A stretch of 46,929 nucleotides of DNA, the filler included, from Streblomastix strix (lineage: Eukaryota), in NCBI GenBank assembly GCA_008636045.1. It is 2 parts of 2 records of this genome, joined end to end, with 100 filler letters (N's around TTAATTAATTAA, not from the genome) between each part and the next. Parts side by side here need not be neighbours in the genome. Positions count along the whole stretch, not along the records: positions 23,530 to 46,929 come from SNRW01000286.1; 1 more part is not named here. One strand, written 5' to 3'. Positions 20,158 to 42,200 of the stretch are shown here, piece by piece. Both the position numbers and the translations under genes were made by a program. Positions within the stretch are counted from its first letter, which is position 1. Each line of letters begins with the position of its first letter. The notes below the pieces were generated by a model. The model was given only the letters and a program-made list of their open reading frames with translations, was not told the DNA's origin and did not search any database.

Positions 20158-21819
20158 TTAAATATAAGGGCTGCATCACAGACAACAAATTTATTCACGC
20201 TATTTGTAACCATAATCTTCGCAGCTAATGACTACAACAGCAAAGGTTCAATTCATCAATATGATGGGTAAATGATATGTGCAATTTTGCATAAATGACT
20301 ATGACACAAATGTATGCATTAATCATCAAAAATAACAATTTGAATTAATAATCAAAAATTATTCAAAAATATTCAAAATTACTAATGTGAATAGTATATA
20401 GCACTATTTACATCACAAATATTTATATTTATTGACAAAATGTTGTGGGATTGCGTGTGAAAATAATATGAAATAAATTACTAAAATTTTTCAAATAATT
20501 TCAAGCGTATGTATTCATTATGTTTTAATAATTAAAAATATAATAGACAAAATTAATATACATTCATTCAAAATTTTCATTAATTCTTTCAGACTAATCG
20601 CTTAACTAATTGATATTTTAGAGTAGTAATTCAGGTTATTTACATCAACATTTACGGTTATTGCATGCATGAATATAACTTTGTCTTCGAAGGAATGCAA
20701 ATTATGGTATTCTCATGTATTTGTTTAAAGTGAATGTTGGTACATCAGATAATGATTCAAAATTCTTTTTAATAAATTAAATCATTTCTTTAGGAAATTT
20801 GATTGATTGTATATATATTAGTAATGACCTCAATTCTTAAGATATTTATTAAAAAATAAAAAATACAGAAAAACGACTAAGCATAAAATTGCCTTTTTTA
20901 ATGTATATAAATGGCAGATAATTATAAAATGAATAAAACGTTGAGTTAAAATATACTAGATTATTTATATGTAATATATCTACCCAATCATACAACAGTT
21001 TAAATAAGAAGTATGTTAACTACTGAATTGTAATGGTTAAATTAACAAAGTCATATAACTGTAACATCTGAAATAGACACATTTGTAAATCAAATTATTG
21101 CTGAAAGATTTAACTAACAGTAATAACATTAATTGATATAAATTGAATTATAGTAATAACTACAACAATAACCAATAACAAATATTAAATTTTAATTGTT
21201 GAAAATTAATGAACAACTTTAACAATTAACATAAACCTAACCATAATTAACCAAAAATGTTGATGAAATTTAAACTGAATTAAATTAATCTGATAATACT
21301 GATGAAAAAGGAATATTAGACCTTGTTAAACACAAAGTTAATTACAAATAAAAATTTTATGAAAGTGGAAGAAGATAACGTGTATAATAATTATTACAAA
21401 TTATACAATAAATTACAAATTAGATACGTTAGTTATAAATTTTGTTAAAAACAATAAATGACATATTAAGAGAAAAATTTGATTTGAATGACGATGATCA
21501 ATAACTAAAAGAAATTAAAATAAATTATGAATAACTATTAATTGAACAATAATTAAAATATTAATAGGAGTTAGATCAATAAGATCAGTTACATCAATAA
21601 GAGATGCAAGATTTGAAACAAAAATTAGAGAAATAGAATAAAGCGGCTATATAAATACGAAAGTTTTATCGAAGATGTATCGCATAGTAACAATTACGAT
21701 AATCAATTAATGCAACAAAAATAAATAAGAACAAATGGAAGAAATATAAACTAAGTCAATAATTATAATAGATAATCATCAATTCGAGATACAAGAGACA
21801 AGGTGAAAAATCATTTAAG
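20158..21819 (+). mobile_element. Truncated, diverged relative of the 7-kb pPolB-only element (one TIR + upstream region + 5' part of the ORF)
   Basis: 20160-20320 resembles the TIR (ctgcatcac..gctatttgta.cataatct..caattcatcaat..ctatgacacaaatg). 20400-20900 aligns by eye to the reverse complement of 36710-35460, and the ORF aligns to the N-terminus of 35458(-). Confidence 0.85.
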
Positions 21820-21843: not shown

Positions 21844-22361
21844 AAAGAAATGAATTATCTTTGATGAATAACTTTATTATTGTAAAAGAATTGGTAATTA
21901 TTGTTAATGAATAAATTTATTAATGCGAAAATAATTAGAGCAATAGTATTGAATATTGAAGTGGATTGCTTATTTGATTAATGAATGGGATTATGGTGTG
22001 CGATAATTTTTTCATATTTTCGGTTTTGGGGCAGGCTTCTTTTTTCATCACTACTGATAACCCAAATCAATGATTTGAACGATACGTATTAACTTATTTG
22101 GCTAGTTTATAATGACTATGGATTCGGTCGAATCAAATTTTATTGATGAAATTGAATAAGTTGTATCGACCAGTTAGTCGATTGTTGAAATACATTATTT
22201 GATGAAATTGATGATGATGAACAGTTGCAGCATTGATTATAACCATCATTTTTGAAGTATACGCATGTGATATGACCTTAGGTTAGTGCATCAGAGTTAT
22301 ATGAAAAATTGAGAAAATTGATGAGTTTTCAATAGTCTATTAAATTATTTTATTTTTATTA

Positions 22362-23182
22362 TATGGGAGTATCCGATCACAAACAACCACCCCAAATTTT
22401 TTTAAAAAAATTGTAACATGATTTAAAATTAAAAAAAGTTGGAGTTGTAAAATGTTTAAAAATCTATCATGACAGAGTTGCGCGAAAAATTTTTTTTGGT
22501 TCGCTAGCCAGCGACAGGTTGTATATGCTCTTGAATTTTATTTTATTTATTTTATAAAATTATTTATTAAATAAAATTAATATTTGCAAAATTTTTAGGC
22601 ACCAGCGATGGAGAAAAAAAAACTTTTTTTTATTTTCCATTTTTTGAAACATTCGTATAATTATTTTAATTAATTAATATTTAATTTGATGTTTTTATTT
22701 TTTAATTAAATTTTGTTTAATAAAATTCATATTTTTTAATCAACACGACGCAAATTCACGATTTTAATTTTTTCATTTTCGCACATTTGCACTTTTGTCG
22801 AAATAAATTTAATATTCGAATTTGGTAATTTGTATTATATGATTTATTTACATAAATTGTCATAAAAAGCTAAAATTAAACATTGGATGCAGTGAAAAGT
22901 AAAATATAAAGAAAATCTTCGTTTTCGCGTGCGCCAGTGCCTAAAAATATCACAAATATTAATAATGTTAATTACTAAATTTTAATAAAATAAATTAAAT
23001 TAAATTCATTAACATATGTAAACTACCGAAGGCTCACGATCCAAAAAATTTATTTTTTACTCAAATACGCTACGATGCATTTCTGAAGATTTTACGACTC
23101 CAACTTTTGATTGTATTAAATCATATTATATTTTTTTCAAAATAAAAACAGGGTGGTTGGTACTGATCGGAAACCCTCATAT
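22362..23182. mobile_element. MITE/foldback element with ~260-bp diverged TIRs
   Basis: Left tatgggagtatccgatcacaaacaaccaccc..aaaagttggagttgtaaaat..tttttaggcacc versus right ..gtgcctaaaaa..ttttacgactccaactttt..gggtggttggtactgatcggaaaccctcata; TA-rich ends, non-coding. Confidence 0.8.
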
Positions 23183-23429
23183 AGGCCAATAAAAACCTGA
23201 AATATATATTGAAAAATAAATATTTTCAAACTGACTTGAAAGTTGGTTTCTTAGTCAATGTTGGTACGCTGATCGCGAATATGATGTTAAAAATAAGTGA
23301 TTGGATTGATGATTCGGTCGAATTAAGCAGATTACTGAAAAGGATAAATAGAGTGGGTAAATGAAGTGATTTGTCCATGTGTCCATGGTAAAGAAATGTA
23401 ATTAGTATATATATGCTAGCGCTACGGAT

Positions 23430-23529
23430 NNNNNNNNNNNNNNNNNNNNNNNNNNNNNNNNNNNNNNNNNNNNTTAATTAATTAANNNNNNNNNNNNNNN
23501 NNNNNNNNNNNNNNNNNNNNNNNNNNNNN
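23430..23529. other. Artificial assembly gap/linker (N44-TTAATTAATTAA-N44)
   Basis: Exactly 100 nt, with an all-frame TAA spacer in the middle of the Ns. Confidence 0.95.
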
Positions 23530-23539
23530 TCTACGAATA

Positions 23540-23962
23540 TGTCTTAATTTTATCCTTGTAATCGTCGATTTGATTTTCTGTTAAGAATAATTAACAATTA
23601 TCTATCTATACTAATTCATAATCACCATCTGGAATATTACCTGTGAATGCCACCTCCACCAATTCTATGCACTATACATGATACTTTCTGGCTATTTGGA
23701 CCTGCTAACGGAGGTACATGTGTTTATGATGTTAATAACACATTTGATGAAGTGATAAGTTAAATTGAAGGATGAAGTAATTATTAATTATTTTTTATTT
23801 AATCTAAAAATGGATTATAAAATAGTACATACGAATGGTGAGGGTGAGGTGGCATTCACAGGTAATATTCCAGATGGTGATTATGAATTAGTATAGATAG
23901 ATAATTGTTAATTATTCTTAACAGAAAATCAAATCGACGATTACAAGGATAAAATTAAGACA
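23540..23962. repeat. Perfect 117-bp inverted duplication next to the gap (23540-23656 versus 23846-23962)
   Basis: Identical reverse-complement copies; the junction lies at a ccacctc(c)acc microhomology. Confidence 0.9.
23650..23775 (+). pseudogene. C-terminal fragment of putative major capsid protein (copy 1)
   Basis: PPPPILCTIHDTFWLFGPANGGTCVYD..*, homologous to 27986-28254. The capsid identity is inferred from gene context. Confidence 0.4.
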
Positions 23963-24942: not shown

Positions 24943-25722
24943 ATCTAGTATCTTTATTTTTGTTCCATCATTGCTGTATTATACTATTAATGCCTATCTC
25001 TTCGTTAAATTTGTATACTACTCCCATACTTTATCCTTATCGAATGGTATAGAAGATTAATAATAAAATAAGTTAAATTTCTAACGATTGAATCCACCGA
25101 AGAAGTATATTATATCAACATTAGCTTTTATACTTGCATCAGGACCTATTATATCTTATAAGCATAGAAAATAAGTGATTCTTGGCTATCTGTTCTTGAA
25201 TAGCTTTTTGAATAATGGTAATTACTTATTCTTAAATACTGACATCGCGTCATCAAATAGAACTAGTGTATGAGGATATTTCATTTTAAAATTCTCTGCT
25301 CAAATAGTAGAAAGGATATCCTACTTAGAATCCGACGTAAGTTAATTTATTAGATGTTTCTCAACAACACTATCATATGCTGCTTTTGCTTCAATTAGAT
25401 CATTAAGTACACTATCAATTTCACCGTAGGTAACAATCTTTGTTGGAATAGTGATTAATGTGCTCATCTTCTTATATGTTTAATCATTATTGCTATCAGT
25501 AACATATATAAATAACGTATAACAATTCTTAACCTAACTCAATTTGATTAATTCCTTAAATACATTGTATGACTTATCACTTCCTCTCTATCCTATAAGT
25601 AAGTTAATAGAATTATATGTAAAGTTAATTTCCTTGTGAACTATGCTTTATACCTCATGTTTATTAGTGACTTAAGTATCTAGTAATTCATTTACATATT
25701 GCGTTAGTGAATGATTTGACAT
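24937..25722 (-). CDS. A32/FtsK-HerA-type genome packaging ATPase (copy 1)
   Basis: Walker A LLIGQRGSDKS (G to D variant), Walker B HTLVLFDD, then KNRQPRITYFLCLQ; open for 262 codons. Confidence 0.8.
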
Positions 25723-26990: not shown

Positions 26991-27133
26991 ATGAAATTAA
27001 TAAGCTGGAATCTTGTTCACATAGATAAATAAGGTAGGGTTGAATGTATTGGTAACATCTCTTCCGATAATTTCAATGAAATATAGATATCAAAGTACTG
27101 CTTACTTTTAAGATAAGATTAATTAGAAGAATA
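26991..27133 (+). pseudogene. 5' half of a protein X paralog, cut by the MITE
   Basis: WNLVHIDKQGRVECIGNISSDNFNEIQI versus YKIVHTNGEGEVAFTGNIPDGDYELVQI. Confidence 0.6.
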
Positions 27134-27983
27134 CAGGGTGGGGAATAATTCCATGGCCGAAGTTCAGAACAGCGCAGGTATATCTATGAATAATTTAATA
27201 TAAATATATATATGATACATTGTATTATAGACATTTTTAAACAAAACATAAATTTCATACTCATAGGGGTTTGTATGGATTTTTATGATCTTTAGTTTTA
27301 TACTCATGAAAAAAAATTTTAAAATTATATGCTGCTCCAAATTTTGAGAACTTTTATATCTGATATATATATATGTACTACATATACATATATGTACATA
27401 ATAAAAATATAATAAAATAAAATCAGACACTTCTCAAGAAAATAAATTTTTCAATTTTTCTTAAAATATTTTGATAGAAAATATTTAGTTTTTTTTGTTT
27501 AAATATTTTTTGCACTAGTCATATTTCAAAAATATATATTTTTTAATATTAATTATTTTCATTAAAATATAATACTCAAAAATTAATCAAAATTCATTTC
27601 AAATTAAAAAAATTAAAACTAAAAAATTATTAATTTTCTAACTAAATTATTTGAGAAAAATTGAAAAATTTATTTTCTTGAGAAGTGTCTGATTTTATTT
27701 TATTATATTTTTATTATGTACATATATGTATATGTAGTACATATATATAGATCAGATATAAAAGTTCTCAAAATTTGGAGCAGCATATAATTTTAAATTT
27801 TTTTTTCATGAGTATAAAACTAAAGATCATAAAAATCCATACCAATCCCTAAGAGTATGAAATTTATGTTTTGTTTAAAAATGTCTATAACACAATGTAT
27901 TATATATATAAATTTATATTAAATTATTCATAGATATACCTGTGCTGTTCAGAACTTCGGCCATGGAATTATTCCCCATCCTG
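27134..27983. mobile_element. Young Tc1/mariner-type MITE, 850 bp, ~330-bp near-perfect TIRs, flanked by TA
   Basis: TA|CAGGGTGGGGAATAATTCCATGGCCGAAGTTC ... GAACTTCGGCCATGGAATTATTCCCCATCCTG|TA; non-coding AT-rich core. Confidence 0.92.
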
Positions 27984-27985
27984 TA

Positions 27986-28254
27986 TAATGTGAACGCAAT
28001 AGCAATGGTACATTAACATTTGATGGATTAGATTCTAAGAACTAGAATACAGCAATTGAACTAAAAGGACTACCACTTTTCAGTAGAGAAGTAAGTACTT
28101 ATTATAATGTTGATACTATTGGAAAACATCCACCTCCTCCGATTCTGTGCGCAGTTCACGATACTTTCTGGCTCTTTAGCTCTAGAGATGGAGGATCTTG
28201 CTTATATGATACAATACATTCATTTGATTAGGTTATTAACTAGGTTACTGCTTA
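27986..28254 (+). pseudogene. C-terminal fragment of putative major capsid protein (copy 2)
   Basis: CERNSNGTLTFDGLD..IELKG.P..HPPPPILCAVHDTFWLF..GGSCLYD, lying upstream of the candidate minor capsid gene. Confidence 0.45.
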
Positions 28255-28285
28255 AATATCAATAGAACATTATTTATGTAATAAA

Positions 28286-28660
28286 ATGCTATTAGATATG
28301 ACTTCAGCTCCAAATATAAAGCGCTTCATAATAATATAGGATGATTGTACGTATGTAGAAGGAATGTTTAGGATATAGTTACCTTATGATTTTGTTAACT
28401 CAAATAATTAGCGAAAAAAAAATATTCTTATAATTTAAGATTCTTAATGTTACTGGTGAGCACTCTATTGATTCAACACTAGTATAAGAAGAATAATATT
28501 ATGATAATTTTGTAGATTTTTGTAATGAAACGAGAACAATTACTGAAGTTTAATAAATGAAGCATTAGCCAAGTATGTTGATTTGGTTCAAAAATAATAT
28601 GAATTAGAATTTATCATAAACGGATATAAAATTTGTTCTTGAATTAATGCATAAATATTA
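28286..28660 (+). pseudogene. Putative minor capsid protein copy 2, frameshifted
   Basis: SAPNIKRFIIIQ..IQLPYDFVNSNNQR..VQEEQYYDNFV.FCNE..IWFKN..KFVLEL aligns to the 24149 ORF; frameshift at the A-run near 28420. Confidence 0.55.
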
Positions 28661-28839
28661 ATTGTTATTATTTTTAAATAATCGAGGAGGGAATATTCTC
28701 CCTCAACTTTTGTGTAGATTTGTGTTTGAATTATCGTAACACTTCGATGGTTCAGATATGAGTCGACAATTATTTTTAACCAATAATTAATAATCGTTCG
28801 TCTCAATTTACTAATCCAACTTTTTTTAGTAATCAGAAA

Positions 28840-29687
28840 ATGACATCGGAAACCCCTTCAACCCATTAAATAGGCTCTAATAACGAAAATTACACAATTA
28901 GTTCTTACAATGGTTTCGAAATAATGATATGTGATAGTGACGGCTTTGTTAATGCAACTATGTTAGTTCAATAGATTAATGAAGGAGAATAAACTAGAAA
29001 ATAATTAACTAACATTACACGTTCACCTGTCTTTGTAGAATACAATTAATATCTAGAATAATCTATTCTCTTTAATTTGAAGGGACCTCTTTGTTACTTA
29101 CTTTCAACTACATTTATGAATGATATTAGAAGAACACACGTTCATAAGTAATTATTGAATATTATTTGCATAAAATCATCAGTTAAATACTTGCATCATG
29201 TTATAACAATAATGGACAAAATTAATAAAACAACAATTGCAGAACATGAAGCAGAAAAAATATAAGCAATAGCAGATAAATTTCACAGAATAATGAATAC
29301 AGTTACTGATACGCTATCTAATCGAATGACAGAATTGAATTCAGATGTAAAATCATTAATTCCAAGGGCTGTTTTAAAAAGTAAAAAAAAAGCTTTTGCT
29401 TGATAGTTGAAGAGGTTCATTAATATGATGATTAAACAAAGATATAAATAAGACGAAAAATGAAGAAAGCTATTAGTAAAGGATTAATGGAATGCTAAAA
29501 ACATGATACATTATTGTTCATCGACAATTTGCCAATAGCTATAACAATTAATGAAGTCATTAAAGAACAGCTATCAAATAGAGGTGGAAAGAAGATAAAA
29601 GCAACAAAATATACATTTCCATATGACTAATTAGATGATATAATCGAACGAATTAAATAGATAGTAATTGAAATCTAAGATGTATGA
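28840..29687 (+). pseudogene. KilA-N domain protein, frameshifted
   Basis: YNGFEIMICDSDGFVNATML..RRTHVHKQLL..SSVKY; frameshift at the A-run near 29390. Confidence 0.75.
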
Positions 29688-30046: not shown

Positions 30047-30127
30047 ACATATTTAATTAGCTTTTTTGAATAAAAATAACAATCAACTTCATTTGAAGGT
30101 GATGAGTACGTTCAATAGAATCATATT

Positions 30128-30348
30128 AATAATATATATGGACTGCATCACAATGCACTAATTCTGCCGCGCTATTTGTACTCATAATCTCCGCGCCAAA
30201 TGACTTTTACAACTAAGGCTCAATTCACCAATGTGATGTACAAATGATATAGACAATTCTAAGCAAACACCTATGACTCAAATGACCACAATTCATCAAT
30301 GTGAAGTGTAAATGGTGTGGATAATTCTATTCAAATGTCTATGACACA
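30128..30348 (+). repeat. Left TIR (221 bp) with 68-bp internal tandem subrepeats
   Basis: aataatatatatggactgcatcacaatgcactaattctgccgcg...; subrepeats start at 30221 and 30289 (caattca.caatgtga.gt..aaatg). Confidence 0.92.
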
Positions 30349-30370
30349 TTCATCATCAAAAACAGTAACA

Positions 30371-33300
30371 TCATTAATCAATTAAGTAGTGGTCTGCATT
30401 AACACCATACATAAATGGTGCACAACATCCATTGGCTAATACAACCATCTTATTATGAATTCCTGTAAGTGCTGATTTTTCTGTACTAATCATTGACATA
30501 AATCCCATTTTCATTTATAAATTATTAGTTATCACATTGATGTTACATCCTTCATTCAAACATTTAATGTAGTCATTAGTTGTTAAATTAGCCTTCTTTT
30601 CACTTACTCCTTTCATCCGATTCACTAATGAAACTATGTCTTCATTTTGTTCGTTTCCATTGTATAGACTATAACATTTAGGTGCGAGACAAACGATATT
30701 TTCGCCCTATGATTCGGTAGTGATACCCATTAATTTCTTCTCTTCAGCGACAGTACAATTGTCCCATGGAAGCCACTCTTTATAATGCAGGTCATAGAAC
30801 CCCTAGTCTTTGATTACGTACTTCAATCCTTACTTATAACCTTCTATTTTTGATCCTGCAATAGCTAAATACATTGAGTCAGTATCCATATTACAGAAGT
30901 GAACTCTATCCATATCAATACATTTATAAAGGAAGTTCTATACAAAATTTAGATACCAAAACTTGCTATTGTCTAATGTAAATACCGCTTCTTGAAGAGG
31001 CTCATTACACTTAAATTTTCTAGGTGACTCACTAACCATATATTAAGCTTCTTCAATAACTTCACCATCAGAATCCAATCTATCATCACTCAATTTCCTT
31101 GTTGCCTTATGATCCAATTTCAATTATTTGAGTGATGTCTATCGAGCATTGTTAAATGATATCTTATCAAATTTAGCATTATTTTATCCTTCTCCTCCAA
31201 AAGCACTATTCAGAATTTGCTTGTAGTATAGCGATTTCGTGTCATTGTGTTGGCTAATTGCATCCTATCTCTTAGCCATCATTGTACAGGCAAAAGATTC
31301 AAAACCTAGGTGTTTATCGAATAGTGCAATTGAATCAATGTCATCAACAACAAAGTTGCAATAGTCAATCAAAAACCATAAAATGTAACTAGTAAAACAC
31401 ATGAATTGATTGTGTGTTGATAGCAATGCTGTTAGTTTTGTTGTAGGTTTGTCAACAGTTAATCGCTGTGATTTCATCTTATTGTACATAAATTCTCCTA
31501 TCTATTCAACCGAATTATTATACGTTAACTTCCTCCATATAGGTGCTAAATTTATGTGTGAGTTAATATGTTTTTCATCATTATGCCCCTTAATTGTAAC
31601 ACAGAATAGCTACCCTTTGTCATTAAATCTATCATCACTCATAATTATATTTCGAGCTTTCTATTTTGAATTATTAGATGCGCATTTGAAATAACTAGTT
31701 AATCCACCAGCTTGATAAATTCGATGATTTGTATAAGGGTTATTTTTGTTGAAGATACCACTAAACATACTTGAATAGAGTGAGTTGAAATCTAAATCAA
31801 GGATATGAGTAACAATATACTAATTATCATATGATGTTATTGTTTTAGCTACTTGATTGTATCTAAGTTTATTAATGTGTGTGACACCTTTCAAATTACA
31901 TTAGTGATACACATTAGATAACTCACCTTACATACACTCCTTTAACATATTATATACTGACTCATTATTAATTGTCATAGGAAGGTGTTCGTAGATAGCA
32001 TATTTCATTAACTGTATCTTTAATTTACTAATATCATTATCTTTATCAGCCTTAACTGTGTTACATATTTAACAAGCTAGTTAACAATTCTATTTTGTAT
32101 GGCTAATTGAATTATCAATTCTATCTAATGTAGGCTTGTTTTCTTTAGTGAATTTGTTATGACATAGATGACATGTTTCATTAACTACTTTATCTCTAAT
32201 CCATTCAAAATCATCTTCAGTAACATTATTAGTTGTATCCCTCTTAGCAAACACATCTTTATTAATATATCCTTTGACTTTGTTATTCCACCAGTATTAA
32301 GTGACTTCGAATTATTCAAATCCATTAACTATATTATAACTCGCATTGATATCGAATTTTCCATAACAATACTTGTATTTAATTTAACTAGCAATTTGAG
32401 CTAGTGATATACATCCTAACATATCGACTTTCTCCTCCTATGTAATTTGAATAAAATGATTGATTGGGTTGATCATACATGTAACGTCCCTGATATTATA
32501 GTGCTTTAAATACTCCCATCTACTTTCAAAATTGATTGAATCATTACAATATTGTTCATAATCTTCGTCACTAATATTCTTATTATTAAGTTTGTCATAG
32601 AAATCATCCTTAGTGAATGGAGTTGTTAGTCCTAGGACAAATTTATAGTTATCATAATTGAATGAACCATGTGGAAATATACCCTTTGTTAATATTATAC
32701 CTTTAGTTCCAAATTTCTCAACGAATTGTTTTAATGTGTTGTTTGGTGGAATGAATGATAATATATCAATAAATCTCAAGTCAAAATCATAATCCTAATG
32801 TGATACAATTGTCTATTTAGCTTAAGTTGTTGATCCCATGTATTAAATTTTAGTCTTATTTTTAATTAGATGTTTGAGTAACAAATTCATATCAAATTTC
32901 TTAGAATTGAATCCTATAACTGACACTTGAGGCTTATATGGAATATAGTTCTTGTCATTGATTTATACTTCTGGTATGTTCGATTAATTAGCTTCGTTAA
33001 CAGTAACGGCAACTTCAAACAATTAACTTATCCATTATTCAATAAAATCAGTTCCGTCTCGTAAATCAAAATATAACGTAGTAATAATACCATTTATTGT
33101 TGCTGCTGACGCTACAGATAACGGTTCTAATTAAGCAATTATATTATCTTCATTAATTATGTTCTCTACTGTCTCTAAATCAAATGTAATGTAATTAAGT
33201 GTAGGTGCTAACTAATCTTATTAGCCTGTTGCTACTAATTTCTAGAGTAACTTATTATTTGATATATGTGGATAATAAGGCTTCGGTTAGTGATCTAATT

Positions 33301-35458
33301 TAACTTATTTAACTGTCTCAGGACCCTAACAATATTTCAAATGCCTAGCTAAATCACGCTTATAATTTTATTTCTTAGTATTAAATATCATCTAACAATT
33401 GTTAGGACAGAGCTTTCCATTAATCACTTTATCAATATCACTAATATACATTGCATGAATTTCATCAACTAATGACAACGAAACTAATAATACATTAACA
33501 GTTTGATAGTCCTTATCGATAATATGTTCATCAAATTTGTTAAATTATTCGACATCACTACGATTGATTTTATGTTTCATCTCATCACATGAGTATGCAA
33601 TTACATTTAGCTTGAATAGTTATTGATATCGTTCAAGATCAGTTACATAATTGAAACCTTTATATGATTCGAGTAATTATTTATTAGACTTATTTAATCT
33701 CTAGCTTGGGTTAATGTCATGGTATTAGAGAAACAGTTTAATAGCATCACTAACTCTAGTTCTTGTTTAATCAATATCAGAATGTAAGGCAAATGATGCG
33801 GCTATAAACCAACAAATATTGTAGTCACATTCTACATCCCTAGTAATACCTTCTTTATTGAAGTGCTAACATATTTTATCCATTTTAGTACCTAATGGCA
33901 GTCTATAAACAACAATCAAAAACGTATATAGTGCTACCTTTAATGTTGCTGAATCTTCATGTGTTGTGTCTTAATAATCGGATAGCATATCAACAGCTTT
34001 CTATTTGAAATAGTCATTAGTTTGTTTATCTCGAACAACTGTGTTAGATAACGTCTTATAACTATCATCAGCACTTGGTCCTGTGTGAGAGTAATGATAT
34101 TCATCTAATGTTTGTTAGTGCTTATATACCTATTTCTTTTTCTACCAGATAGATCCAAAACTAATATATACTTTATATGGCTTAGCTTTCTCTAACTCAT
34201 ACACCTAATCAATTTTATCTTTCAGTTGCTATAAGTCATAGAAATGATTGTAATAGTATTAGATATATGGTTCTTTATTGAGTATATCTTTTGACTTCAT
34301 TAATTCATCAGATAGTCCTTCAATATTAACTTCATTCTTTTCTTAGAATTTCTATCGTGCCTGAGCTAATGCAGCATAATAAGATGATAAATTCTATGGT
34401 GTGAAGATAGCGAATGCTTTCTAATTAAGTTCTCTATTTTTATTTAATTATTGCGTTTATGTTATACTTGGTTCACTAAAATGATCCTTATATAATCCAT
34501 AATATGATTCATTAAGCTTTTTAACCCTTCTATTGAATTCTTTAGCTCCTAATTTTGCTTCTAAATAGCTAAGAATTTTAAATGGCTTTTCACCCTATCG
34601 CTTATATCGTTAATTAATGATTACCTATTCTAATTATTCGTATAGCTTATGCCTTCGCCATTTGCCTTAAATCACTTTAGCAGCATTTACTGACTATTTC
34701 ATTAGTTGCTCTGCTAAATGTCTTCGATAATGCTTTTGGATTAGTACAGCTGCTTTATTCTATTTCTCTATTCTATCCTTCAATTCTTGTATCTCTTTTT
34801 AATGTAATTGTTCTTATTAATCTAATTCTTATTAATGCTTCAATTATTGTTCAGCTAACAACTGTTTATAATTTTCATTAATCTCAATTGGCTATTGAAT
34901 CTAATCATCCAAATCAAATTCTTCTCTTAATATATCATTTATTGTTTATAGTGACTCTTGTAGCTAATGTATCTAATTAGTGATTTATTGCTATGTTTGT
35001 AACAATTATTTCATACGCTATCTTCGACCACTTTCATCAAATTTTTATTTGTAATTAACTCTGTATTTATCAGGATTGAATAGACCATCATCAGTATTAT
35101 CAGATTAGTCCAATTCATTTATGATTTCATCAATATTTTTGACTAATTGTGGTTATTGTTCATCATTATTCAACTATTATTACTATTCATCAACTATTTC
35201 TATTAATGGTTGCAATTAGGGTTATTCAACTTATTCCAGCTATTGTTATTATTATCCATTTCTTTCAGCAACAATTTAATTTACAAAAGCTACAATTTCA
35301 GTTGTAATAGTTATTTGACCTGTATAATTCAAATGAATCAATTCATTAGTTAACATATTTCTTAATTCAACTGATGTATAATTAGGTAAATATTGAACTT
35401 ATAATTAATCTAATAGGTTTTAAATCAATTATTTATTCATTCTGTATTTCTCTGTCAT
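30371..35458 (-). CDS. Protein-primed family B DNA polymerase polyprotein, ~1,695 aa, apparently intact
   Basis: ExoI YITFDLET, ExoII GFNSKKFD, KGIFPH, ExoIII HYNIRDV, PolA LDFNSLYSS, PolB KQILNSAFG, PolC MDTDS, LAPKCY, KGV. ATG-to-TGA span is 1696 codons, and ORF-track pieces 32438-32779 and 31265-31489 are in the same frame. Confidence 0.9.
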
Positions 35459-36901
35459 TTGTGTGCGGGAAAAAAAAAGTCAATTTATTACTTTACCATT
35501 TTTCTGTATTTTTTATTTTATAATAAATGACATAAGAATTGAAGTCGCTATTAGTATAAATTCTACAAATCAAAACACCTAAAGAAATGCGTTAATTTGT
35601 AAAAAAGAATCATGATTTGCTATCACATGCTACAACATTCACTTTAAATAGATATATGGCAATACCACATTTTAGATTTCTTCGAAGGCATGACTATATT
35701 CATGTATATTGTGACCGTAAATGTAGATCTAGTTAACCTGAATTATTGCCTAAAAATATCAATTAGTTCAGTGATTAGTCAGAAAGTATTAATGAAAATT
35801 CTGATAGCAACTCCATTAAAGTCCGAATTATATTTTCGTTAATTTGTTAATTTCATATGCATTTCAGTGAAAATCGAAAATTATTCAATAAATATAAATA
35901 TTATTTGTATATTAATAAATAAAAAACAAAAATAAACAACATGAATATAATATTTATAACAATGTATTCATTTAAATATTAATAACTGAACCAATAATCA
36001 ACAGATTATTTGTAAAAAATTTTAATAAAAAATTAAACGGGACAAAATTGCAATATTAACTAAATGTTTGAGTTCTATATAAAATAAAAATAAATTGTTG
36101 GATAAAAATTCAGAAAATTAGCTTTTATATCGGTGTATTTGGTAAAAAATTAAGAAAATAAAAATGTAAAAAAACTTTCCTTGAGTCCTGTTACATTCAA
36201 CCTGCAATTTGAATAAAATTGTGAATAAAATTTAAATAAAGCGCAAATAATTAATAAAATATATTATACTTCAAACGTTTTGCATTTACAGGCGAGTATG
36301 TACAAATCAATCTTGCACTTCGCTTCTTTCTCGACCAATACAATGATTTTCCTATCTTTTGGCAAAAAACCATAATAAATAAATGAAATTAAAAATATAA
36401 ATATGTAATATATAATATCGAAACTTATTTGCAAAGTTAATTTTTTATTAAAATAAACATATTAACAAATTAACGAAAATTCAATTCCGACTGTAGTGAT
36501 ATAAATGCTAATGCTTCACAATCTGACTCGCCTATCAGTTGATTATATATTATTTTTATCTATAATATTTTTAATTATTGATACATAAAGTATACCCATA
36601 TTTGAAATTATTTGAAAATTTTTAGTAATTTATTTCATACTATTTTAACACACAACCCTACAACACTATGATAATTACTATATATATTAGTGATGTAAGT
36701 AGTGATATAGACTAAATATATATAGTAATTGATATAATTAGTCTATTAGTTAGTTAAGAAATTAATAGTCAAAATTGTTAAATTTTTTCATAAATTTTGA
36801 AAATTAGACGTTTATTATTCAAATAATTTTGAACATTTTTGAACATTTTTCAAATATTAATCCATATCATTTGCACATCACATTGCTGAATTGTGCTCAT
36901 T

Positions 36902-37122
36902 TGTGTCATAGACATTTGAATAGAATTATCCACACCATTTACACTTCACATTGATGAATTGTGGTCATTTGAGTCATAGGTGTTTGCTTAGAATTGTCTG
37001 TATCATTTGTACATCACATTGGTGAATTGAGCCTTAGTTGTAAAAGTCATTTGGCGCGGAGATTATGAGTACAAATAGCGCGGCAGAATTAGTGCATTGT
37101 GGTGCAGTCCATATATATTATT
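36902..37122 (-). repeat. Right TIR (221 bp); an extra partial 68-bp subrepeat extends inward to ~36860
   Basis: Reverse complement of 30128-30348. Confidence 0.92.
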
Positions 37123-37895
37123 CATATTATTCGTACAATTGTTCCATCATTATTATACTGCACCAGTAATGCTTCTCGTTTGTCTAATTATTCATATTTA
37201 TTCCATAATGTTTCTATATCTAACGGAATGCTTGAATAGTAGAAGAATAAATTGAATTTTTATCTACTAAATCTACAAAAAAAAGTATATTATATCAACA
37301 TTAGATTTAATGCTAGCGTCTAAACCAATTATATCTTGCAAACATAAGATTTATATGATTCTTGGCTATCTATTTTTGAATAGTTTCTTATATATAATGG
37401 ATTGTTTTTATTCTTGGAGATACATATTGCATCATACGGCACTATTGTATGTGGAAACTTGATAGAAAAGTCCTTTGCTCCAATTTGAGATAATATGTCT
37501 TTTTTAGATTCTTCTTTCATTTATTTTTCTAATTTCTTTTCCATAACTTCATAATAAGCTTGTTTACATTTAATCAATTAATTTAATGCTTCATTCACTT
37601 CTGCATACGGAACTAATTTTGTAGAAATATTTATTAAATCTTTCATTTTCTTATAAGTTATATCATTAATGCTATCAGTAACATACACAAATAGTGTGTA
37701 ACATTTATTAGGCAATTAGCTTAATTTGATTAGCTCTTTGAATACATTATATGACTTACCGCTTCTACGTTAACTTATAAGTTGATTGATAGAATTATAT
37801 GAGAAATTAAGTTACTTATGAATCATTGATTCTATTTCATATTTATTAGTTTTCTATTTAATAAGCAATTGATCTACATATGCGTTAAGAGACAT
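37122..37895 (-). pseudogene. Packaging ATPase copy 2, frameshifted
   Basis: NSINQLISQRRSGKSYNV, FVYVTDS, FPHTIV; frameshifts near 37390 and 37280 relative to copy 1. Confidence 0.8.
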
Positions 37896-39294: not shown

Positions 39295-42200
39295 ATTACA
39301 CGAACAAAGATATCAATTGCAGACGTTAATCAGCTTCTCCAATTATACGATCCAAATGCAAAAATAAATGTGAATGATAAGTAAAAAGAGATCAAATTTA
39401 AATTCAACTCTAACAAAGATCGGATTCTATGGCTAACGCAATAACGTTAAAGCTGTGGAATAAGCGATAAATGCAGTAGTTTCACGTAATATCTATATGA
39501 AACAATCCAAAGCAGCAACTGTTATATAATAATGTGTTCGAAAGTGGTTCAATTAACGGGAATAATAACGGTTAACACGAGAATAATAGATATAAATGGA
39601 ATAAGAATAATTAGAAGAATAACGAGAATTAGATATAAAAGAATTAAGAGGAGTTAGATCCAAAATTATTAGATGAAGATGGTGTATTCGATCCAGAAAG
39701 ATATAGATAATAGTAGCATTAATTAAGAGCATAAGACATAGAAGAATGTAGGAGAAAATAACAGGAAGATAGATAAGCAAGATAAGCATAATTATTGGAT
39801 GAATTTCATAATGTAGAGTATATGAACATTGATGTACTATTCGAAACAGATTAATAAAAAATTAGCGAATACATTAGAACTCATGAAAAATATGTGTTTC
39901 ATCATCTAAATACAAATAGTGATGTGATTATGCTATGTGACGTATAGAATGAAGTGTAATTCAATAGGAATAAGAACATTGCATTAAATCAATATAATAA
40001 AGAAACTGGTGCTCTTTCATAAAAATCTTATAATTTATCTTCAATTAATTAAATGAAACCGACTAAATAATATTATATTAATATTGCTTCATAAGCAGAT
40101 TTAAATAAGCTCTTAGACTCCGTATACAATAAAGAAAAAGGTAATATGTTTAAATTAGCCGTTGATTTTGGAGTGCTAATTGAACGTGTTGATGGTAATG
40201 CAGAAGCATAGACAGTTAAATACAAATATATCCTTCCAGTAGATGCAAATTCAGAAAAATGACCACCATTAGAGATACGATTTAGAGATAACATTAATAT
40301 GTACTAGTAGTATCTTCGAACAGTTATTGAAAGCATATAAGAGAGAACTAATGCAGATTTTTATGAAAAAATAGTATCAATATTCTCAATAATGCTTTTT
40401 GTATTTCGATATCCACTAGCAGGTGCAGCTATTCCTTCATTAAAGTAGCATATTAAACGAAAAGAGATTTATTATGTTGATTATAATGTAAATTTATGTT
40501 TTTGGACAGCATATTCATTCATCACAATGCCTAATTCAAAGGATAAACGTTGGAAAAAGTGTTCAAGAATCGCTGAAACTAAGCGTATATTTTCAAGAGT
40601 AAATGGATTGGAGTTTCGAGATAATTATTAAGGATTCGATTTCGTATGAGATATTGATAACGGCATTAATAAAGAATACATCAATGTGCACATGTAAACA
40701 TTTGAAGATAATCCACCATATTATGAACTTACATAAAATTATCTAGTTAATGATTCGGACAAGTAGTTCAATATCCTATTCATTAATGATGGAATAAACG
40801 CTCATATTATATATATCTGATGTTGAAGCACTAACTGGATTCCGTTACTGTAATATATGTCATAAATAAGCATTCCAATTAGGTGATTCAAATCTATAAT
40901 AATTAATGAGAAATCATATGAAAAAATGTCAAAAGATTGGTGGAAAAATCGTGAAGAAAGTAATCTTGGAAAGATTCTCGAAACCGTTTGCTCCTCATAT
41001 TTTATCTAACAAGACTTATAAGTAACTATTAGCGAATAATTTAACTCATTTGTTCAAACCTACACGATATTACATAATATATGATATCGAAACATTAGAA
41101 AAGAAAGTTAATGAAACATTTTGTGTTAGTTCATAAGTTACTACAACTCTAATTCCATACGCTATTGCATCAACTGTCAAATTAGCTAGTGGTATCCATT
41201 CAATTTATTACGATTTTCGAACAGAAAATTTCATAAGAAAGTGGTAAGAGTAAATATTTGATGAAGCGAAATTAATTAGGTAAGATAATAAATTTATAGA
41301 TGAAACAATCCCATAATATTATGAAGTACCTGTAATTGGGTTCAACTCAGCAAAATTTGATGCATCTATTCTATTCAAGAATTTGAAATCAAAAGACTGG
41401 GCTATCTCAAAGTATTTAGGTTCAAGTACAATAGCAAAATAGATAGTTGTCAAGCATTAGTCTTCAAGAATTCAATTAGGATTCGTTGATTTAAGATATA
41501 TTCTATGCAATATAAGTTAAAGGATGCTTTGAGATATTTTGGGAATGGATAGTATAATAAAGGTCGTTTTCCTCATGAATTTATAAACATTAATAATTAT
41601 ATAAGGGAATTGAATAAATGTGAACCATTTCCGATCGAAGCATTCGATAACACAATACGAAATAAGAAGCTTAGTGAAGTAAAGTACAAAGACTACCTAG
41701 TCGAAGCAGCTAAACACAAATCACGATGCGATTATTTGAAGCATTATAATATATTAGATACTAGAGTTCTTATTGAACCAATAGATTATTTGATTAAATT
41801 AATGTTTAAATATAAAGTGGACTTGTTAGCCATTATATCTATGTCTTAATGCTCCAATGCAATCAAATATTCTATGGCACATAACGACATTGATATCAAT
41901 GATAATTATAATTATGAAAGCACAGATAAATTAATCGAAATTACATAGTGTTATTTGAGAGCAAAACTGGATAGTTATATTGAATAAGTTAATAAGACAG
42001 GTAGAGATTCATGCAATAATGTAACGATTGACGATTATGATTATTTTAAAGAATTATTCAAGAATTAACGATATAATATGTGTAATGCACGATTCATATG
42101 GAAGAATAGGCCCACATTAGATATAATTGATATTAGTAAAAGACACTCAAAAGATAATGTGATTCCATACTGTTTGTATTGTAATGTATGCAGAGCAAAT

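Follow-up and report, generated by a model that had tools for sequence, protein, structure and literature searches.

An IQ-like motif pair in the N-terminal arm of a protein-primed DNA polymerase from a Streblomastix strix mobile element, with a plausible calmodulin-family ligand

Introduction

Why would the DNA polymerase of a mobile element carry motifs of the calmodulin-binding type? This question is raised by a family-B DNA polymerase of the protein-primed type (pPolB) from the termite-gut oxymonad Streblomastix strix, encoded in the 46,929-nucleotide stretch of DNA analysed here (the window), whose N-terminus shows two IQ-like motifs. To our knowledge, no published account explains by what means the free DNA copy of a Polinton or related linear element travels inside the cell and is carried through division. 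What would travel on the DNA ends is the N-terminal arm, to which the terminal protein is fused; in two lineages this arm shows a recognisable motif of the host-binding type, which names a putative host partner. The carrier is a polymerase-only element with a target duplication, which is unusual for a Polinton derivative. The literature searched yielded no paper linking IQ motifs or calmodulin to a Polinton polymerase, and the sole prior trace of an IQ motif on a pPolB is the automatic UniRef IQ name of one fragment, P0010. As far as its accessible text goes, PMC10120064, which treats Streblomastix together with Polinton, mentions capsid genes and the genetic code only.

Results

The polymerase gene

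The pPolB ORF (P0001; 30371..35458, minus strand) is a continuous frame of 1695 codons (35458-30371) under genetic code 6 and encodes a protein of 1695 aa; under table 11, one single ORF of at least 100 aa is found in the entire window. A genetic-code artefact was rejected, since the frame is open over 1695 codons and matches public S. strix proteins. These proteins make up seven of the seven matches in one search and 23 of 24 in another, and the relatives bear the name DNA-directed DNA polymerase. Over aa 179-1695, P0001 and the S. strix record P0042 have the same sequence, so that the latter does not count as independent. Most records start at Met253, which is read as a gene-model choice because the frame is continuous in P0001, P0037, P0038 and P0009, and a separate small gene starting at Met253 was rejected on the same ground. 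P0001 differs from four relatives at conserved polymerase sites within positions 31933-30900 (MQGELS vs MQGGLS and SLYSS vs SLYPS), and given these altered sites this copy may be inactive despite its open frame.

The element that carries it

The gene is located in a mobile element of 6,995 bp (30128..37122, minus strand), without recognisable integrase or capsid gene, of which the pPolB ORF takes 5,088 bp as the sole recognisable gene; five other ORFs in the 5' part show no Pfam match at E<=0.01. The element is bounded by terminal inverted repeats of 221 bp: the left one (30128..30348) starts with AATAATATATATGG and contains internal subrepeats of about 34 bp, the right one lies at 36902..37122, and the two ends show two mismatches in the first 221 bp. 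They are flanked by a 6-bp target-site duplication, CATATT, at 30122..30127 and 37123..37128 (plus strand), and contigs from public runs join both flanks without the element. The insertion point is the stop codon of an ORF at 38060-37122 (minus strand), which shows no Pfam match and which we take to be an ATPase from its Walker-A-like motif. In the 5' non-coding part, a secondary insertion of about 680 bp with 38-bp inverted ends (35814..36498) is skipped by contig joints and absent from a second copy of the element, and is later than the rest.

Both the repeats and the duplication lie within the ranges given for Polintons (100-1500 bp and 5-8 bp, respectively) in the available part of 10.1101/2023.08.22.554363. 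The same part describes Polintons as elements of 13-25 kb with retroviral-type integrase, packaging ATPase, protease and capsid genes; by Pfam on the five other ORFs, the 6,995-bp element has neither this complete gene set nor this size. With Polinton repeats and duplication and without the other genes and the size, it is therefore called a polymerase-only Polinton derivative, which would probably borrow its integrase. Full-length relatives on contigs of 5.6-6.5 kb, together with the collinear second copy, suggest that the polymerase-only state is family-wide. Three distant pPolB relatives (P0185, P0189 and P0064), full-length or long and in the standard code, lie on contigs of 5.9-6.0 kb, about the size of this element minus its inner insertion; NCBI assigns one of them to an alphaproteobacterial bin, which may be a binning error. 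Polymerase-only linear elements of about 6 kb may form a wider class.

The element sits inside a Polinton-like element, among genes that include a decayed pPolB at 39.3-43.8 kb; an rve match at 45 kb is weak (E 0.14, below the Pfam cut-off). To the left of the element are found a KilA-N gene (28762-29403; 25.9 bits, cut-off 23.8) and an ORF piece (27812-28459) without Pfam match, which we assume to be capsid-protein-like. Two paralogous ATPase-like genes (24960-25706 and 37139-37887) are 68% identical, and the window therefore contains at least two Polinton-like elements. It also shows short MITE-like elements at 27131-27986, 22309-23229 and 23540-23962, with inverted-repeat arms of 312, about 340 and about 140 bp, and two N runs at 23430-23529. 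In the metagenome and viral collections, no locus of the P0001 family was found, and the family copies used for comparison were drawn from protein records. A 12.6-kb contig that is catalogued as a giant-virus genome carries a complete calmodulin gene (L001, 644-1093).

Two IQ-like motifs 23 residues apart

The first motif, IQ1 (AAVLIQKHYRRHLAEQLM; 34700..34753, minus strand), has its Ile at residue 240 (nt 34741) and the second, IQ2 (AAKVIQGKWRRHKLYEQL; 34631..34684, minus strand), at residue 263 (nt 34672). The peptide quoted in a preliminary description of this DNA is thus present in the code-6 ORF, with the 23-residue spacing that was reported and with a second Gln (Q264) that is indeed encoded by TAA, Q241 being CAA. 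The likening of this spacing to myosin necks holds for the number and not for its specificity, as 23 residues is also the value that occurs most often (21 intervals) among the unrelated IQ-repeat proteins found by search.

The Pfam IQ family PF00612, whose match the preliminary description had proposed as a check, scores P0001 above its cut-off (21.5 vs 20.3 bits, E 1.8e-4). The match is carried by IQ1, which reaches 23 bits when cut out separately, and is also above the cut-off in P0037, P0038, P0010 and P0042 and just below it in P0009. P0164 and P0121 show no Pfam IQ match at E<=0.05, and IQ2 alone and the motif of the neighbouring Polinton-type pPolB alone show no match to an IQ family at E<=10. 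Five IQ-repeat proteins from outside Streblomastix supplied 95 IQ motifs for a profile, which was run over the 58,580 stop-free 24-mers in the six frames of the window. Only four outliers were found, all in pPolB N-termini: IQ1 (41.8), a motif at nt 39524 (35.7), a motif in the second copy (30.0) and IQ2 (24.8), followed by a next score of 1.4; the training proteins had been found because they resemble P0001, a bias in favour of IQ1 and IQ2 that does not extend to the Polinton-type motif. Two motifs of the form [FILV]Qxx[FWY][RK] 20-27 residues apart appear in 5 of 20,000 shuffles of aa 150-400 and in 19 of 20,000 shuffles of the whole protein, and the score of either P0001 motif on the profile was reached in none of 1,000 shuffles. 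The motif pair is real and non-random.

IQ motifs are described in the accessible part of PMC4914028 as helical and proline-free, with a net charge of +2 to +5 and a tandem spacing of 20-27. Those of P0001 have a hydrophobic residue at position 1, Gln at 2 and Arg or Lys at 6, are helical and proline-free, and carry net charges of +2 and +4. IQ1, IQ2 and the Polinton-type motif all lack G7 and R11 of the consensus IQxxxRGxxxR, having R, R and K at position 7 and E, Y and Q at position 11, respectively; by their sequence they are therefore IQ-like and non-canonical. An origin of IQ2 by tandem duplication of IQ1 was rejected: their similarity score is within the range of unrelated IQ motifs, and 33 of 69 nt are identical in AT-rich DNA.

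Conservation among copies of the family

Among the 41 records piled on aa 226-300, 31 cover IQ2 and four cover IQ1. The IQ1 core I-Q-K-H-Y-R-R-H is unchanged in all four independent records covering it, and the IQ2 rows, window included, show I in 32 of 32, Q in 31 of 32 and W in 29, position 6 being R/K in 31. Both motifs are therefore kept in close copies; an HMM match and conservation, whose joint absence was to count against the IQ assignment, are both present. The flanks in this family are about as conserved as the motif, so that these counts speak for retention and not for special constraint.

A diverged, 3'-truncated second copy of the element family (20162..21818, plus strand) is 57% identical over aa 1-294. 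Its first motif reads IRKFYRR, with Q changed to R (I at 21655; profile score 30.0), and its second motif is lost (INKNKWKK, about 21712-21750; score -1.6). Between P0001 and this copy, dN/dS is 0.28 overall and 0.11 in the helix preceding the IQ block, and of six blocks it is the IQ block itself (43 codons) in which dN is highest (0.338; dN/dS 0.34). The change and the loss, with this high dN, are the chief result against the IQ reading; as the copy is 3'-truncated, they may reflect decay as well as the divergence of a subfamily.

Predicted anatomy of the protein

Two AlphaFold models were made: one of aa 191-780 from 85 sequences (mean pLDDT 78.6; pTM 0.52, so that inter-domain contacts are unreliable) and one of aa 1-300 (mean pLDDT 57, of low confidence outside a long helix). 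A Gln/Glu-rich predicted helix (aa 192-232; 34763..34885, minus strand), which corresponds to the Gln-rich coiled coil noticed earlier, runs straight into the IQ pair, and both motifs are carried by a single predicted helix that spans aa 192-267 in the first model and 191-288 in the second. The motifs had been placed in the terminal-protein region itself; they lie 135-160 residues upstream of the predicted terminal-protein domain (aa 398-520; 33899..34267, minus strand). This domain is modelled as beta-alpha-beta-beta-alpha-beta, the topology given in the available part of PMC11071308, and its candidate priming residue, Ser503 (nt 33950-33952, minus strand), is predicted in the loop that links helix 2 to strand 4, the final strand, with S or T in 59 of 61 rows. 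Y-family little-finger chains appear among the fold matches in weak rows only.

Downstream follow a vOTU-like cysteine protease domain (33437..33886, minus strand) with Cys549 (C in 69 of 71 rows) and His668 (H in 70 of 74), which matches OTUD1 (Z 8.6, rmsd 4.9, 122 aligned; Foldseek prob 0.98, E 0.017), and a Cys/His zinc-finger-like motif (aa 684-710; 33329..33409, minus strand) with conserved C684, H706 and C710. The remainder (30671..33184, minus strand) contains what we take to be exonuclease motifs (aa 759-991) and polymerase motifs A, B and C (aa 1223-1528), separated by an HNH-like insert (aa 1096-1133) that is below the Pfam cut-off (E 3.9); P0001 shows no Pfam DNA_pol_B_2 match. Fold matches of the model include adintovirus and MELD virus pPolB regions (E 8.4e-13 and 9.1e-9). 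An HNH-like insert between exonuclease and polymerase is found in both pPolB families of the window (32060-32173 and 42100-42200, Pfam below cut-off); the part of 10.1101/2023.08.22.554363 at hand calls such an insert unique to oomycete and nematode pPolB2. In several S. strix pPolB families, the first 65 or so residues (35260-35458 and 39295-39480) follow a common helix-loop-helix-loop-helix pattern with L..L.Y.G at its end; this is possibly a small DNA-binding domain, modelled with low confidence.

The layout of terminal protein plus vOTU is described in PMC11071308, where, in the part available, it is a hypothesis that the vOTU cleaves off the terminal protein. The IQ pair is predicted to lie on the terminal-protein side of that cut.

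An IQ-type motif in a second pPolB lineage

The Polinton-type pPolB at 39-44 kb, in which the preliminary description had seen no such motifs, does contain one. A frameshifted 5' piece (39383-39649, plus strand) holds KQSKAATVIQQCVRKWF, and within it the single IQ-type motif KAATVIQQCVRKWF (39509..39565, plus strand; I at 39524) gives the second-best profile score in the window. In this family, 19 of 24 relatives score above 10 on the IQ profile. As far as its rows go, the motif is kept where IQ motifs are and varies where they are free, with I in 22 of 24, Q in 22 of 24 and R in 21 of 23 against 13 of 23 and 14 of 23 at two free positions.

The Polinton-type motif is before the DGxF..YR landmark shared by the two families and the IQ pair of P0001 is after it. 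Counts at motif positions 1, 2 and 6 from this comparison are circular, since the search pattern had selected for those residues, and were set aside. A quick tree (54 of 85 rows, SH-aLRT only) places the two families in separate, well-supported groups with other lineages between them, and they do not appear to be sisters. Their motifs are no more alike than unrelated IQ motifs (score 37 vs a mean of 37.0), and a common origin of the motifs was rejected for this reason. The different place, the non-sister lineages and this lack of special likeness point to two gains, and two gains in one host would be the simplest reading, the alternative being one acquisition followed by shuffling and losses. 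No IQ motif is seen in nine homologues that belong to neither family and have 150 aa or more upstream of their terminal-protein domain; they include P0219, of an S. strix family with an apparently whole N-terminus. The motif is hence dispensable for pPolB function in general.

Discussion

A host-binding arm on the DNA ends

Somewhat better than an even case can be made that the IQ helix binds host calmodulin, or a related EF-hand light chain, and stays on the linear DNA ends of the element. A calmodulin-family ligand is plausible from the HMM match and the conservation among close copies, and the recurrence of an IQ-type motif in a second pPolB lineage strengthens this reading. The polymerase would prime replication on Ser503, and the OTU domain would then sever the N-terminal 520 or so residues from the catalytic part; by this cut the helix, the IQ pair and the terminal protein would stay covalently on each 5' end. 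One or two calmodulins would next grip the IQ helix, probably independently of Ca2+ and by the C-lobe only, since position 7 is Arg or Lys instead of Gly; we hold this binding step to be fairly probable. The extended light-chain mode leaves the N-lobe free. A bulky residue at position 7 favours that mode, according to the part of PMC4914028 consulted. Bound calmodulin would stiffen the arm and leave its N-lobes free as a tether. By way of nuclear entry, the spindle or another part of the cytoskeleton, this tether would position or partition the free copy of the DNA until the integrase of a helper Polinton inserts it. If binding is granted, the chances for this tether role are about balanced.

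The incidental look of a basic amphipathic helix of the terminal-protein precursor, be it a nuclear-localisation signal, an arm that binds DNA or the end of a coiled coil, is an unlikely but serious explanation of the same residues. It would account for the basic patch that extends beyond IQ2 (11 K/R in aa 284-316), for the generic coiled coils returned by the fold search for the IQ helix, for the absence of G7 and R11, and for the diverged second copy, which keeps basic residues where it loses the motif. Composition-matched shuffles, however, never attain the scores of the pair, the pair matches a genuine IQ tandem without gaps, and an IQ-type motif recurs at another position in a second lineage.

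That match is among the 144 that aa 187-769 gave when searched against 1.84 billion representatives; four of them are unrelated IQ-repeat proteins, two with an ASH domain, which we take to be 'ASPM-like'. The IQ pair of P0001 and that of an ASH-domain IQ-repeat protein are identical at 23 of 46 residues. A captured piece of a host IQ-repeat gene of this kind, kept as a spacer in a variable N-terminus and perhaps binding calmodulin without benefit to the element, would fit this best match, the wide differences between the N-termini of pPolB families and the weak constraint in the one DNA comparison. We regard it as improbable: the match is the top of 1.84 billion proteins, so that its selection inflates the likeness, the Polinton-type motif has the IQ pattern of kept and free positions, and selection is likelier than a neutral capture that happened twice in one host. 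ASPM capture as a demonstrated event was rejected.

A host-sensing or Ca2+ switch, by which calmodulin would turn the polymerase or protease on or off, has a precedent in Legionella SidJ, a non-host enzyme activated through an IQ helix (PMC6858067, in the part seen), and until cleavage the motifs and the enzymes share one polypeptide. Against this, some 280 residues separate the motifs from the protease and some 500 from the exonuclease, they sit on an extended helix (pTM 0.52, inter-domain contacts unreliable), and relatives work without them, which makes a switch very improbable. The same part of PMC6858067 reports Ca2+-free calmodulin as a common ligand of IQ motifs and, for a non-host protein whose IQxxxR motif is reduced, calmodulin binding in the absence of Ca2+. 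The coupling of replication or localisation to Ca2+ that had been suggested is doubtful, given such Ca2+-free binding and the predicted cut of the motifs from the catalytic domains.

Least credible is centrin as the ligand, by which the DNA ends would be tied to centrin structures such as basal bodies: VI-xxx-V-xx-W in the Polinton-type motif fits the LLX3F/LX2W spacing of the Sfi1 centrin-binding pattern AX7LLX3F/LX2W (PMC2063913, as far as its available part goes) but has V for L/F and no Ala, IQ1 and IQ2 lack the pattern, with His where Trp is needed, so that centrin fits them poorly, and centrin covers 25-33 residues per repeat in that source against about 20 for IQ light chains, the spacing here being 23. 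Nothing in this analysis points to a link with basal bodies. A host calmodulin-family tether is thus the best reading and is favoured over a calcium switch on catalysis. A wider picture is speculative and, on balance, doubtful: two lineages would have gained IQ motifs independently and would load host calmodulin on their genome ends, riding the spindle or nuclear-entry machinery, one of them being a polymerase-only Polinton satellite of about 6 kb from a class that is maybe widespread in gut protists.

Comparison with known systems

Cytoplasmic and mitochondrial linear plasmids share with this element linear DNA, inverted repeats and a terminal protein fused to the pPolB; unlike them, the element is integrated with a target duplication, and no RNA polymerase gene was seen in it. 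The IQ motif of the sodium channels Nav1.4-1.6 shows the same IQxxYRRHL core, and the Nav1.4 IQ peptide 6mue_B is the best, though weak, PDB sequence match (E 0.3), the match to PF24609 being below cut-off; the channel motif is single and in the channel tail, and there is no other similarity. SidJ is likewise a non-host protein that uses a reduced IQxxxR motif and host calmodulin without Ca2+, binding here being putative; its motif is C-terminal and packs calmodulin on the enzyme (PMC6858067, in the same part), whereas those of P0001 are predicted to be cut from theirs. The tandem IQ motifs (PF00612) of myosin necks and of presumed ASPM-like proteins are also helical and basic, with an I-Q-x-x-aromatic-R core, and a spacing of 23 is inside the 20-27 range of PMC4914028, as far as its text is available. 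In contrast to them, the P0001 motifs lack both G7 and R11, are only two and belong to a mobile-element polymerase, with putative binding.

The closest resemblance is to the pPolB of Polintons/Mavericks: the order of terminal protein, vOTU, exonuclease and polymerase and the candidate priming Ser and catalytic Cys/His (both in the part of PMC11071308 available), the HNH-like insert of pPolB2 (10.1101/2023.08.22.554363, likewise in part), the inverted repeats and 6-bp duplication, and the fold matches to adintovirus and MELD virus pPolB. The element differs from these in its 7 kb without integrase, ATPase, protease and capsid genes, which Polintons of 13-25 kb contain in the described part of that source, and P0001 differs in about 400 extra N-terminal residues with the IQ pair. 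The architecture of the polymerase is therefore known, and what appears novel, judged from the sequences, is a probable host-binding motif in two lineages.
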